Below, in pieces: positions 11,021 through 20,485 of a stretch of DNA of 64,000 bases. The stretch's first letter is position 1. Each line of letters starts with the position of its first letter. The stretch covers positions 443,474 to 507,473 of the forward strand of contig CAVZOE010000018.1 in NCBI GenBank assembly GCA_963776725.1. The letters run 5' to 3'. The notes below the pieces were generated by a model. That model saw only the letters and a program-made list of their open reading frames with translations, searched no databases and was not told the DNA's origin. The translations under genes were made by a program, and so were the position numbers. This stretch comes from an uncultured Candidatus Rokubacteria bacterium. GTDB taxonomy: Bacteria; Methylomirabilota; Methylomirabilia; Rokubacteriales; CSP1-6.

Positions 11021-12013
11021 ATGCTTCGCTGGGGGCTCCTCGCACTCGCGGTACTGATGCTGGCCAGTCCGGCCCAGGCCAAGGACACCATCGTGGTGTA
11101 CACGGCGCTCGAGCCGGAGCAGATCACCGACTACATGAAGGCCGTCAACAAGACCCTGCCCAACATCGAGGTCAAGATGCTGCGGTTGTCGACCGGCGAC
11201 ATCTCGGCGCGGTTCATGGCCGAGAAGGACAACATGCAGGCCGACGTCATCTGGGGCGTGGCGGCTACCAACGTGATGGTGTTCAAGAACGCCGGGCTGC
11301 TGGAGCCGTACGCGCCCAAGGGGCTGGAGCGCGTGCAGCCGCTGTTCCGTGACAAGGACGCCACGCCGTCGTGGGTCGGCATCGACATCTACATGTCGGC
11401 GTTCTGCTTCAACACCGAGGTGGCCAAGAAGAAGAACCTGCCCAAGCCGGAATCGTGGGCCGACCTCACCAAGCCCGTCTACAAGGGCGAGATCGTGATG
11501 CCGAACCCGGCCAGCTCGGGGACGGGCTATCTCTCGGTCGCCTCGATCCTGCAGCGCATGAAGGAGCCCGAGGGCTGGAAGTATCTCGACGCGCTCGACA
11601 AGAACATGGCGGAGTACACGAAGTCCGGCTCCAAGCCCTGCAAGGACGCGGCGGCCGGCGAGCGGGCCATCGGCGTGTCGTTCGAGTACGTCGCGGCCAA
11701 GATGAAGAAGGACGGCGCGCCGGTCGAGATGGTCCTGCCCAAGGAGGGCTCGGGCTACGAGATCGAGGCCAACGGCCTCACCAAGCGGGGCAAGGGCAAC
11801 GCGGCCGCCAAGCAGTTCCTGGACTGGGCGATCACCGACGAGGCCATGGGGCTGTACTCGAAGTACTTCGCGGCGGTGGCGGTGCCCGGCTTCCCGGTGC
11901 CCGAGGGGCTACCCAAGGACGTGAGCAAGGTCGTGTATCCCAACGACTTCGACTGGTCGGCGAAGAACCGTGACCGGATCCTCGCCGAATGGGCCAAGCG
12001 ATACCAGAAGTGA
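11021..12013 (+). CDS. ABC transporter periplasmic binding protein, Fe3+/2-aminoethylphosphonate (PhnS-like) type
   Basis: ATG 11021 is preceded by GAAAGGAGAG. Signal peptide MLRWGLLALAVLMLASPAQA is present, and the body resembles PhnS/FbpA-type binding proteins (VYTALEPEQ, PNPASSGTGYL). The tracked ORF 10520.. is over-extended. Confidence 0.8.
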   Translation: MLRWGLLALAVLMLASPAQAKDTIVVYTALEPEQITDYMKAVNKTLPNIEVKMLRLSTGDISARFMAEKDNMQADVIWGVAATNVMVFKNAGLLEPYAPKGLERVQPLFRDKDATPSWVGIDIYMSAFCFNTEVAKKKNLPKPESWADLTKPVYKGEIVMPNPASSGTGYLSVASILQRMKEPEGWKYLDALDKNMAEYTKSGSKPCKDAAAGERAIGVSFEYVAAKMKKDGAPVEMVLPKEGSGYEIEANGLTKRGKGNAAAKQFLDWAITDEAMGLYSKYFAAVAVPGFPVPEGLPKDVSKVVYPNDFDWSAKNRDRILAEWAKRYQK

Positions 12014-13119
12014 CGGCGGAGACCGCCGGCGGCCGCCCGCCGGCGGTCGCGCTGGAGGGCGTCGCCAAGAAGTTCGGCGCGATGGTCGCCCTGCGCGACA
12101 TCTCGTTCACCGTGGCGGAGGGTGAGTTCGTCTGCTTCCTCGGCCCCAGCGGCTGCGGCAAGACGACGCTGCTGCGGATCGTGGCCGGACTGGAGCGCCA
12201 GAACGTGGGTGTTGTCCGGATGCGGGGGCGCGACGTCTCGGCGTTGCCGCCCAGCCGGCGGAACTACGGCATCGTCTTTCAGTCGTACGCGCTGTTCCCC
12301 AACCTCACGGTCGCCCGGAACGTCGCCTACGGCCTGCAGACCCGGCGGACCGCGCGGCCCCAGCTCGAGGCGCGCGTGGACGAGCTGCTCGAGCTCGTCG
12401 ATCTGCGCAGCCACAAGCTGCACTACCCGGCGCAGCTCTCGGGTGGGCAGCAGCAGCGCGTGGCGCTGGCCCGCGCCCTGGCGCCTTCACCATCCCTCTT
12501 GCTGCTGGATGAACCGCTCTCCGCCCTCGACGCGCGAGTGCGCCTGGCCCTCCGGCACGAGATGAAGGCGCTGCAGCGCCGGCTGGGCATCACCACGATC
12601 ATGGTCACGCACGACCAGGAAGAAGCGCTCACGATGGCCGATCGCATCGTGGTGATGAACCACGGCGCCGTGGAGCAGATCGGCACACCGGCCGAGATCT
12701 ACCGCGAGCCCGCCACGATGTTCGTGGCCCGCTTCGTGGGGCACATGAATCTGCTGGAGGCTCTCGCCGACGACCGGCCCGGCTGGGCGCGTGTGGGATC
12801 GCTCACGCTCCGCTATCGCGCGCCGGTGACGGCCCGGCCCGGCTCGCCGCTGACGCTCGGCATCCGCCCCGAGGCGGTCCGGGTCGATTCGGTCGTGCGC
12901 GGCGATACGGACAACCGCCTGGCGGCCCGGGTCACCAGCGTGCAGTTCCAGGGCGCGTCCACGCGGCTGGGTCTTCAAGTCATCGGCGAGTCCGCGGCGA
13001 GGCTGGAGTGCGACCTGGCTGCCACCGCGCTGGCCGAGCTCGACGTGAAGGAGGGTGCCGAGGTGCCGGTGGTCCTGCCGCCGGACGCGCTGCGCGTGTT
13101 CGGGACGCCGGCCGCCTGA
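11989..13119 (+). CDS. ABC transporter ATP-binding protein (PhnT/PotA-like)
   Basis: GPSGCGKTT Walker A, LSGGQQQRVALARAL, LLLDEP and VTHDQEEA motifs. The start is ATG 11989 or GTG 12010 (GTGA overlap with the upstream stop). Confidence 0.9.
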   Translation: MGQAIPEVTAETAGGRPPAVALEGVAKKFGAMVALRDISFTVAEGEFVCFLGPSGCGKTTLLRIVAGLERQNVGVVRMRGRDVSALPPSRRNYGIVFQSYALFPNLTVARNVAYGLQTRRTARPQLEARVDELLELVDLRSHKLHYPAQLSGGQQQRVALARALAPSPSLLLLDEPLSALDARVRLALRHEMKALQRRLGITTIMVTHDQEEALTMADRIVVMNHGAVEQIGTPAEIYREPATMFVARFVGHMNLLEALADDRPGWARVGSLTLRYRAPVTARPGSPLTLGIRPEAVRVDSVVRGDTDNRLAARVTSVQFQGASTRLGLQVIGESAARLECDLAATALAELDVKEGAEVPVVLPPDALRVFGTPAA

Positions 13120-13121
13120 CG

Positions 13122-18451: not shown

Positions 18452-19739
18452 ATGGCCGAGCTCGTCATCGAGGGCGGAACGCCGCTGCGCGGGACGTTGA
18501 CCCCCAGCGGCAACAAGAACGCCGCGTTCCCGCTGATCGCCGCGGCGCTGCTGACGGACCAGCCGGTGACGCTGCGCAATCTCCCGGACATCTCCGACGT
18601 CCGGACGATGCTGGAGGCGATGGAAGGTCTCGGCGTCGAGGTCGGGCGCCACGATCGGCACACGGTCACGCTGCGCGCGGCCGCCCTGCGCTCGACGGCG
18701 CCCGATCCCGTCCTGCTGCGGCGCATCCGGGGTGCGCTGGTGCTGCTGGGCCCGCTGCTGGCGCGCGAGCGGCAGGTCCGGTTCGGGACGAGCGGCGGCG
18801 ATCAGATCGGGCGGCGCCGCATCGACAGCCACGTGCTCGGCCTGCAGGCCCTCGGCGCGGTCGTCGAGCAGACGCCGGACCTCGTGCTGCGGGCGGAGCG
18901 GCTGCGGGGCGCGGACATCCTGCTCGACGAGGCCAGCGTGACGGCCACCGAGAACGTCCTGGCGGCGGCGGTGCTGGCGGAAGGCACGACGATCATCCGC
19001 AACGCCGCGTCCGAGCCGCACGTCCAGGACCAGTGCCGGCTGCTCGTGCAGATGGGCGCGCGCATCGACGGCATCGGCTCCAACGTGCTCGTCGTGCACG
19101 GCGGGCGGCCGTCTGGGCGGCGCCGACTTCACGCTGGGCGCCGACTTCATGGAGGTGGGCAGCTTCATCGCGCTCGCCGCGGCGACCGGCGGCGAGATCG
19201 AGATCCGGGCCGCCGGCGTCGAGCACATGCGGATGTCGTTGCTGGTGTTCCGCCGGCTGGGCATCGAGGTCCGCGTCCGGGGCGACGACCTCGTGGTCCC
19301 GGGCGGCCAGACGCTGGCGATCGCGCCCGATTTCGGCAACGCCATCCCGCGCATCGACGACGGGCCGTGGCCCGCGTTCCCCGCCGACCTGATGAGCGTG
19401 GCGCTGGTGACCGCGACCCAGGCCGCCGGCACCGTGCTGTTCCACGAGAAGATGTACGAGAGCCGGCTCTTCTTCGTGGACCGGCTGATCGGGATGGGGG
19501 CGCGCGTGGTGCTGTGCGATCCGCATCGCGTGCTGGTGCACGGACCCGCGCGCCTGCGCGGCGAGCCGCAGGGCTTGCCGAGCCCCGACATCCGCGCCGG
19601 CATCGCGCTGGTCATCGCCGCGCTGTGCGCCGAGGGCACCACGGTCATCCGCAGTGTCGAGCAGATCGACCGCGGCTACGAGGACATCGACGCCAAGCTC
19701 CTGGCGCTCGGCGCTCGCGTCACGCGCATCCCGACCTAG
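18452..19739 (+). CDS. MurA-like enolpyruvyl transferase (UDP-GlcNAc 1-carboxyvinyltransferase family), frame interrupted near 19109
   Basis: [10 protein letters not shown] (Lys22 region) is present. The loop [16 protein letters not shown] has Asp where E. coli MurA has Cys115. The C-terminal half (FMEVGSF... FPADLM... [15 protein letters not shown]) is in the +1 frame. Confidence 0.85.
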
Positions 19740-19750
19740 GAGGACGAGCC

Positions 19751-20485
19751 ATGCGGTTCGAGGACAAGACGGCGCTGGTCACCGGGGCCCGGCGGGGGAT
19801 TGGTCTGGCGATCGCCGAGCGCCTGCTGGGCGAGGGCGCCCGGGTGGCGCTGGTCGATCAGGACGCCGAGGTCGAGGCGGTGGCCAAACGGCTGGGCCCC
19901 TCGGCGCGGGGCCTGATCGCCGACGTGACGCGCACCGCCGACGTCGACCGCGCGGTGGAGGACGCCTTCCGGTGGGCCGATCGTCTCGACATCGTCGTCA
20001 ACAACGCGGGCATCACCGGCCGCTCGTATCCGATCTGGGAGCTGACCGACGAGGACTGGCACCAGGTGCTGGCGGTGGATCTCACCAGCGTGTTCCTCGT
20101 GTGCCGCGCGGCGGTGCGGCTGATGCGGCCGCGGCGGCAGGGGCGGATCGTCAACATCGCCTCGATCGCGGGGAAGGAGGGCAACCCGACGCTGATCCCG
20201 TACTCGAGCGCCAAGGCCGGAGTGATCGGCCTCACCAAGGCGCTGGCCAAGGAAGTCGCCACTCACGGCATTCTGGTACACGCTGTGGCCCCCGCCGTCA
20301 TCGGTACCGAGCTGCTGCAGCAGATGACGAAGGAGACCGTGGACATGCTGGTCGCCAAGATCCCGATGGGCCGGGTCGGCACGCCGGCGGAGGTGGCCAC
20401 GCTGGTGGCCTGGCTCGCCTCCGACGAGTGCACCTTCACCACCGGCGCCGTGCACGACCTCTCGGGAGGCCGAGCAACCTATTAG
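19751..20485 (+). CDS. SDR family oxidoreductase (FabG-like)
   Basis: [14 protein letters not shown] and YSSAKAG motifs. Last gene of the coupled operon. Confidence 0.9.

Follow-up and report, generated by a model that had tools for sequence, protein, structure and literature searches.

Methylated aminophosphonates are abundant in the lipids of invertebrates and protists. Among the described systems, the closest counterpart of the locus reported here is the 2-aminoethylphosphonate (AEP) cluster phnWAY/PhnS2T2U2 on pSymB of Sinorhizobium meliloti. The pfam13343 binding proteins AepX and AepS have been tested genetically in P. putida (PMC8316502), and stand-alone DAO-family enzymes encoded in AEP clusters, PbfB, PbfC and PbfD, oxidise N-methyl-AEP, which they cleave to phosphonoacetaldehyde and methylamine (PMC10590968). 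The present study concerns a run of seven genes at positions 11021-20485 of a stretch of 64,000 nucleotides (hereafter, the window; G000:C18:443474-507473) from an uncultured Candidatus Rokubacteria bacterium, the assembly of which comprises 7.17 Mb in 37 contigs with 70% G+C; the source names of its closest proteins point to the phylum Methylomirabilota ('Candidatus Rokuibacteriota'). The explanation that we favour, at a probability of roughly 0.55, is that the locus is a mosaic of modules and not a series of steps in one pathway: an importer for AEP, a demethylase of N-methyl-AEP, a pair made up of a pyridoxal phosphate (PLP) enzyme and a short-chain dehydrogenase (SDR), and a relocated MurA isozyme, with frame breaks that are artefactual. 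The elements of the run are as follows.

11021..12013, + strand: PhnS2, periplasmic binding protein of a predicted AEP-type ATP-binding cassette (ABC) importer (TIGR03261, 438.9 bits against a cut-off of 392.75)
12010..13119, + strand: PhnT2, ABC ATPase with a TOBE_2 domain (TIGR03265, 494.8 against 457.7; Pfam ABC_tran and TOBE_2)
13122..14852, + strand: PhnU2, fused two-domain permease (TIGR03262, 670.8 against 593.25)
14849..17270, + strand: DAO-FAO_M-GcvT flavoenzyme (DAO-GcvT), predicted tetrahydrofolate-linked N-demethylase (Pfam DAO, FAO_M and GCV_T; phn-linked clade)
17279..17301, no strand assigned: GC-rich hairpin in the spacer between the DAO-GcvT and PLP genes, with no T-run after it on the + strand
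17330..18446, + strand: PLP enzyme of the Cys/Met family, cystathionine gamma-lyase/synthase-like (PF01053)
18452..19739, + strand: MurA2, Asp-type UDP-GlcNAc enolpyruvyl transferase isozyme (EPSP_synthase family; TIGR01072 through its intact orthologue)
19751..20485, + strand: SDR2, FabG-like short-chain dehydrogenase, last gene of the run (Pfam and NCBIfam, no specific equivalog reached)

The six junctions lie exactly where a first-pass annotation, made from the letters of the sequence, had placed them, but six junctions delimit seven genes, not the eight that it had counted; its domain assignments were all borne out by Pfam and NCBIfam. PhnS2 and PhnT2 overlap by 4 nt (GTG at 12010 and TGA at 12013, in GTGA 12010-12013), as do PhnU2 and the DAO-GcvT gene (ATG at 14849 and TGA at 14852, in ATGA 14849-14852). 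The remaining spacers measure 2 nt between PhnT2 and PhnU2 (TGA 13119, ATG 13122), 59 nt between the DAO-GcvT and PLP genes (TGA 17270, ATG 17330), 5 nt between the PLP gene and MurA2 (TAG 18446, ATG 18452) and 11 nt between MurA2 and SDR2 (TAG 19739, ATG 19751). AGGAG motifs resembling Shine-Dalgarno sequences precede PhnS2, the PLP gene and SDR2, and the NUDIX gene that follows SDR2 is convergent. Judging from this spacing, the seven genes are probably co-transcribed. The earlier view of a single operon holds to this extent, but tight junctions are no proof of a shared pathway: in one relative (locus L059 of genome G065) a gene for a 650-aa RecQ helicase, at 10454-12406, lies between PhnS2 and PhnT2, abutting the former and overlapping the latter by 8 nt. 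Because a helicase can be embedded so tightly in a transporter, tight packing in these genomes does not amount to shared function. Loci L058, L061 and L063 have a gap of about 2 kb at the same position. The 59-nt spacer at 17270/17330 is the border between two modules.

The three importer genes are arranged S-T-U, the permease is fused, and each subunit scores above its NCBIfam equivalog cut-off, in agreement with the PhnS/T/U-like importer of the first reading. The importer belongs to the same three-gene family as that of the S. meliloti pSymB cluster, with which a DAO-family flavoenzyme is likewise associated; it is most likely of the AEP type, and PhnS2, PhnT2 and PhnU2 would import AEP and close analogues. 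Orthologous loci were compared in eleven further genera of Rokubacteria (twelve genomes). In two genomes (G117 and G087) phnW lies immediately 5' of PhnS2; by locus, phnW flanks the importer orthologues in L064 and L067, and phnA-phnY-...-phnW flank that in L059. Genome G065, the source of L059, belongs to genus g29 and has the order phnA-phnY-DAOGcvT-phnW-GS-SDR1-PhnS2-RecQ-PhnT2-PhnU2-SDR2. In Sinorhizobium, Shinella and 'Roseateles' XES5 the importer is flanked by phnW-phnA-phnY. In the genome of the window, by contrast with the pSymB cluster, phnW and phnA are not adjacent to the importer but lie on another contig, C10 (G000:C10:276369-278701, or L057:8370-10702, - strand), where phnA (588.8 bits against 407.55) adjoins a PhnW-AepZ transaminase (372.9 against 360.8). 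The latter falls below the cut-off of the PhnW model TIGR02326 and passes that of its sister model TIGR03301. A hybrid histidine kinase gene is the upstream neighbour of the pair, and no transporter gene was found beside it. PhnJ and the C-P lyase are present in the genome.

The DAO-GcvT flavoenzyme has a complete three-domain architecture (PF01266, 237 bits; PF16350, 56.6 bits; PF01571, 272.9 bits), a GGGVIG dinucleotide motif and a TTWHAAGL segment, which we take to be the covalent-flavin histidine motif. Its best solved match is the mammalian dimethylglycine dehydrogenase (470 bits), and it has the same domain plan as dimethylglycine dehydrogenase, dimethylglycine oxidase and gamma-N-methylaminobutyrate oxidase (PDB 5l46, 4pab, 1pj5); unlike the genes of those enzymes, the window gene keeps company with a phosphonate importer. 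The closest homologues from cultured organisms, 57% identical over their full length, are encoded on replicons of Sinorhizobium, Ensifer and Shinella. In the three annotated loci, they stand behind a DeoR regulator, some 2-8 kb from phnW-phnA-phnY and PhnS2T2U2. In a phylogenetic tree, the window enzyme, those of its genus-mates and that of g29 form the sister group of the phn-adjacent enzymes of Rhizobiaceae (support 0.965), while the paralogue of the same genome and a homologue from Arthrobacter linked to purU-folD (about 44% identical to the window enzyme) fall outside that clade. All the sampled members of the clade, in both phyla, adjoin phosphonate genes; in L059 the enzyme is encoded between phnY and phnW. 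The neighbourhood of the paralogue, on contig C5, consists of an arsenic-type cluster and a TTT transporter and was uninformative. In four further genera (g8, g33, g44 and g24) a DAO-GcvT gene lies directly 3' of PhnU2. These genes form a separate clade, unrelated to that of the window, and two lineages of DAO-GcvT have therefore been recruited to the same importer.

From this context and from the chemistry of the family, the DAO-GcvT enzyme most likely demethylates N-methylated AEP in a tetrahydrofolate-linked reaction. In N-methyl- or N,N-dimethyl-AEP, the C-N bond to the methyl group would be oxidised and the one-carbon unit transferred to tetrahydrofolate, in the manner of dimethylglycine dehydrogenase; the AEP so released would feed PhnW and PhnA, encoded on the other contig, or the C-P lyase. 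Demethylation to AEP with one-carbon transfer is the parsimonious reading because a folate-binding domain is present. In this respect the enzyme should differ from PbfB, PbfC and PbfD (PMC10590968), which release methylamine. Those are stand-alone PF01266 proteins, and the window enzyme, on account of its two additional domains (FAO_M and GcvT), is at most their functional analogue and not a member of their group. The Sinorhizobium DAO-GcvT is not in the supplement of PMC10590968, and no published description was found of a DAO-GcvT demethylase acting on N-methylated AEP. A wider proposal, which we put forward tentatively and with somewhat less than even confidence, is that the DAO-GcvT enzymes adjacent to PhnS2T2U2 or phnW/Y/A, i.e. 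one clade shared by Rokubacteria and Rhizobiaceae and a second, independent clade of Rokubacteria, would all be tetrahydrofolate-dependent demethylases of N-methyl- and N,N-dimethyl-AEP. They would salvage the methyl carbon as 5,10-methylene-tetrahydrofolate and supply PhnW with AEP, and phosphonate catabolism would thereby gain an accessory step not described so far. The uptake and oxidative N-dealkylation of a small amine suggested in the first-pass annotation was thus a sound reading, and the amine is here most likely an N-methylated aminophosphonate.

Downstream of the spacer, the PLP enzyme matches PF01053 over its N-terminal 312 residues (344.9 bits) and has the PLP-lysine motif, but remains below every NCBIfam equivalog cut-off (the best being NF005871, 454.8 against 513). 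Among solved structures, 8sf4 and 3qhx match it best (377 and 359 bits), and it is most like actinobacterial cystathionine gamma-lyase/synthase. It shares the lysine motif with the MetB-type enzymes, from which its failure to reach their cut-offs and its consistent pairing with an SDR set it apart. The genome holds just two members of the Cys/Met PLP family. At the locus under study the PLP gene is found in genera g1 and g28 and is absent from seven genera compared (g25, g29, g30, g32, g33, g44 and g8), several of which keep the importer; it is therefore not a fixed part of the locus. The PLP-SDR2 pair is also found behind another importer cassette (L043, G018, G021), which is of the same superfamily and 37-49% identical; a stand-alone DAO gene may or may not accompany it, and in the lineages with that cassette SDR2 invariably follows the PLP gene. 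In many lineages SDR2 itself comes after PhnU2 or after the PLP gene, and one metagenome contig carries GS-SDR1-PLP only. What is conserved across relatives is thus the pair of PLP enzyme and SDR, not the trio with the enolpyruvyl transferase that had been taken for one unknown route. By family, the PLP enzyme would be of the cystathionine gamma-lyase/synthase type and would belong to sulphur amino-acid metabolism. Homologue lists for the PLP enzyme and MurA2 were filled by close relatives among the Rokubacteria and gave no distant contexts. PbfF (PMC12366243) was considered as an analogue of the SDRs and rejected, as it belongs to a different family (pfam02826).

Three genes of the EPSP family are present in the genome: aroA (contig C21), a canonical murA (contig C37; TIGR01072, 555 bits) and MurA2. 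As assembled, MurA2 is split by an extra base, and its halves score 145.4 and 60.1 bits with Pfam; G009 has an intact orthologue (L007:2946-4229), with 79% identity in the N-terminal half, that reaches 452.3 bits with TIGR01072, against a cut-off of 392.7. The best solved relatives of MurA2 are all MurA. In every MurA2 the catalytic-loop residue that is alkylated by fosfomycin (Cys115 in E. coli numbering) is Asp, whereas the housekeeping MurA on C37 keeps Cys (PGGCAIGVRPID); the equivalents of Lys22, Asn23, Arg91, Arg120, Asp305, Asp369, Arg371 and Arg397 are all kept, as shown by comparison with the solved chains 5u4h and 5bq2 and with the genome's own MurA. Asp at this position is a known natural variant of active, fosfomycin-insensitive MurAs, and MurA2 is presumably fosfomycin-insensitive too. 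It resembles in this the Asp-type MurAs of mycobacteria and chlamydiae. A Cys-type MurA stands alongside it, a two-isozyme arrangement whose closest known parallel is offered by the second MurA isozymes (MurA2/MurZ) of Firmicutes. Unlike the known Asp-type enzymes, it carries an insertion of 11 residues, and its active-site loop is rich in Arg (GGD-x-IG-RRR). In a comparison of 50%-identity representatives it belongs to a distinct clade (support 1.0), whose members have an insertion of at least 10 residues and, for the most part, Asp and an Arg-rich loop. A member of this clade from Solirubrobacteraceae is encoded directly upstream of hisZGDBHAF, among housekeeping genes. Six proteins (P0277, P0279, P0342, P0352, P0366 and P0369) lie in the insert-bearing clade without the GG(C/D)xIGxR loop, and may be relatives of the enolpyruvyl transferases with another function.

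Within a sample of 151 genomes of the phylum, MurA2 is confined to the family of the window, where it occurs in 41 of 94 genomes counting that of the window (0 of 57 in other families), with one copy per genome checked; its surroundings are of at least three kinds. The PLP gene and SDR2 enclose it in the window, in L039, in G014 of g2 and in five further g1 genomes, that is, in part of one genus and in one neighbouring genus. In G005 and G006 it is found among HSP20, tadA and dnaX-ybaB-recR, and in L040 and L041 it precedes a metallophosphoesterase gene. In five genomes (G084, which is 100% complete, and G123, G086, G075 and G122; 92-100% complete overall) MurA2 is the sole gene at TIGR01072 level, the second matches scoring 20-67 bits; since no other gene reaches the MurA cut-off there, it must be the working MurA, and MurA2 would appear able to serve as the MurA of the cell. 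Other genomes of the family hold both types or the Cys type only, a pattern suggesting that a xenologue has taken the place of MurA. On its residues, clade, patchy distribution and varied contexts, MurA2 is therefore read as a genuine, xenologous MurA isozyme of the Asp type, brought into this operon by a relocation specific to the lineage. An ancestor of the family would have acquired it, and in one sub-lineage it would have moved into the PLP-SDR junction. What sits in the window is in essence a housekeeping-type MurA in a juxtaposition not conserved among relatives, although the genome also holds a canonical murA.

It should be noted that, as assembled, the reading frame is interrupted in three of the seven genes, each of which changes once to the next frame, near 17059-17066 in the DAO-GcvT gene, 18247-18251 in the PLP gene and 19109-19112 in MurA2. 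The first-pass annotation had the families right but read the genes as intact. The frame that begins the PLP gene is open throughout 17267-20485, yet only its first, third and fifth stretches are protein-like, the rest being Arg-rich, out-of-frame sequence. In alignments with five to six relatives, each break is a single base inserted in the window. At every site that they cover, contigs assembled from short reads of near-identical strains (identity above 99% for some; three DNA runs, from soil and rhizosphere) omit one base, although at the first site only part of the depth of one DNA run omits it; contigs of one RNA run also omit the base at the second and third sites. A hidden Markov model of codon-position G+C, used to call frame switches, recovers the three breaks among 12 switches in the whole window.

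The three breaks are assembly errors and not signs of decay. It is highly improbable that they are real and that this strain carries the three affected genes, for the DAO-GcvT enzyme, the PLP enzyme and MurA2, as pseudogenes. The assembly itself does show the breaks, and three within 2.1 kb are somewhat denser than the genome average; but frame switches occur at 2.35 per 10 kb over 0.88 Mb of this genome, whereas 101 kb of DNA from relatives gave about 0.4 per 10 kb, CheckM-type marker completeness is only 71.87% for a 37-contig assembly, other genes are shattered likewise (the second Cys/Met PLP gene, G000:C21:266891-268040, in four pieces, and the DAO-GcvT paralogue, G000:C5:280845-283066, in three), and the short-read contigs lack the extra bases. 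Very unlikely, too, and already largely refuted by gene distribution, is a single catabolic or biosynthetic route in which all seven products take part, the PLP enzyme, enolpyruvyl transferase and SDR processing the amine supplied by importer and oxidase. Overlaps and spacers of 2-59 nt run throughout, the seven-gene order recurs in L039 (a 1.26-Mb contig), and PLP-MurA2-SDR2 are contiguous in the further genomes listed above, one of which, G009, also has the importer and DAO-GcvT upstream. In seven genomes, however (G005, G006, G010, G012, G013, G018 and G021), MurA2 is missing from the PLP-SDR junction; it occupies housekeeping contexts there and is the only murA in five relatives, the PLP gene is lacking in seven genera, and the RecQ gene shows how little packing means. 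Moreover, G001 and G002 have MurA2 in the junction while no PhnS2 was found in them; in G002 (L038, G002:C112) the second permease is followed directly by DAO-GcvT, without PhnS2T2U2, and then by PLP-MurA2-SDR2 as in the window. The same distribution bears on the idea, very improbable in our estimate, that the position of MurA2 is adaptive, a fosfomycin-insensitive MurA co-expressed with a phosphonate importer protecting wall synthesis from toxic phosphonates imported by accident. The Asp at the fosfomycin target site, the tidy insertion with spacers of 5 and 11 nt, and a weak tendency of MurA2 and PhnS2 to co-occur within the family (21 genomes hold the two genes together, 20 MurA2 alone, 16 PhnS2 alone and 37 neither, in a count not corrected for phylogeny) would fit it; but the importer is retained in G005 and G006, where MurA2 lies at another place, G001 and G002 show the reverse, MurA2 follows the PLP gene and is not beside the transporter, and importers of the PhnS2 type are not known to carry fosfomycin.

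A more serious alternative, although still doubtful, is that the importer and the DAO-GcvT enzyme act on an N-methyl amine that is not a phosphonate, such as N-methyltaurine, dimethylglycine, sarcosine or a methylated polyamine, the proximity of phn genes being incidental. 'PhnS2T2U2' is a putative name based on context, the PhnT2 ATPase is also PotA-like by NCBIfam, and the GS-like gene upstream resembles gamma-glutamyl-amine ligases. Several observations weigh against our interpretation and in part favour this alternative: DAO-GcvT homologues of Labrenzia and Phaeobacter, 46-48% identical, lie in non-phosphonate contexts; the Rhizobiaceae enzyme has a DeoR regulator of its own; and in S. meliloti its gene lies between the taurine and AEP clusters, so that N-methyltaurine or another N-methyl amine is a possible substrate. 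In the genome of the window, no phnY adjoins phnA-phnW, and PhnX phosphonatase was not found, the only match scoring 24 bits. The PLP-SDR2 pair, the GS-like gene and SDR1 often co-occur with importers of this superfamily, and may thus be linked in function to what is imported. In 9800-22200, matches to sigma-70-like promoters and to intrinsic terminators were not above chance, and none was detected; and the protein functions given here are assigned from family and context. On the other hand, the association with phn genes recurs independently in several genera of Rokubacteria and in Rhizobiaceae, in two DAO-GcvT clades, and the enzyme of L059 is encoded within the phosphonate genes themselves. 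We retain the reading of the locus as a mosaic, with N-methylated AEP as the most likely substrate of its flavoenzyme.

Upstream of the run, the window contains the following elements.

5464-6816, + strand: GS-like ligase (Pfam, NCBIfam), upstream syntenic partner
6870-7574, + strand: SDR1 (Pfam, NCBIfam), upstream syntenic partner
7691-9241, + strand: second fused ABC permease (Pfam, NCBIfam), upstream syntenic partner
9381..10487, no strand assigned: two receiver-only response regulators (Pfam), separating PhnS2 from the upstream genes, a feature of this lineage alone
10488..11020, no strand assigned: 533-bp untranslated spacer, presumed promoter region of the operon in this lineage

The conserved frame of the locus is formed by fab genes, the GS-like gene, SDR1, a NUDIX gene on the opposite strand, a methyltransferase gene and an M28 peptidase gene, while its middle is variable. 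The GS-like gene and SDR1 precede PhnS2 in 10 of the 11 loci of family f1 compared, the remaining one (L065) stopping at a contig end before that point; the observation comes from the window (5464-7574) and the orthologous loci L035-L037, L058-L064, L070 and L071, and in G065 the two lie between phnW and PhnS2. From the GS-like ligase, a gamma-glutamylation step for aminophosphonates is conceivable as a candidate function. A perm_up-like permease gene is found between SDR1 and PhnS2 only in the loci of genus g1. In relatives the upstream genes run straight into PhnS2, and the response-regulator pair, present in the window strain and in L039, is absent from G005, G006 and G009; its insertion split a gene string that is continuous in these three genomes and created the 533-bp spacer. 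In this leader no Rfam family was found at E<=1, hence no riboswitch or other RNA family, and no promoter-like site. Contigs of an RNA run (X15) cover parts of the PLP gene and of MurA2, one of them spanning their junction; they were not used as evidence, as contigs cannot prove transcription or a single transcript.

Signatures of frame switches occur about every 4 kb throughout the assembly, with clusters of three at 51497-52803 and of two at 58922-60122 of the window, and any gene call from this assembly needs an indel-aware reading. A called protein of 664 aa on a 180-kb ENA contig (P0049), in which PF01053 and PF00275 are combined, is most likely a read-through or frameshift artefact and not a true fusion of the PLP enzyme and MurA2. 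More generally, long-read metagenome assemblies can conceal single-base frameshifts, because wrong frames remain open, and in compact genomes of high G+C content an overlap of stop and start codons is no proof that adjacent genes work in one pathway.

A MurA of the Asp type, which is presumably insensitive to fosfomycin and which occurs beside the Cys type or alone in one family of abundant soil bacteria, represents a natural target replacement. The remaining interest of the locus lies in the well-supported prediction of a folate-linked demethylase of N-methylated aminophosphonates, an enzyme shared with Sinorhizobium. This prediction is directly testable, as an orthologue stands beside phnWAY in the genetically tractable S. 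meliloti, and, if true, it would reveal a new route by which methylated aminophosphonates enter the AEP pathway.

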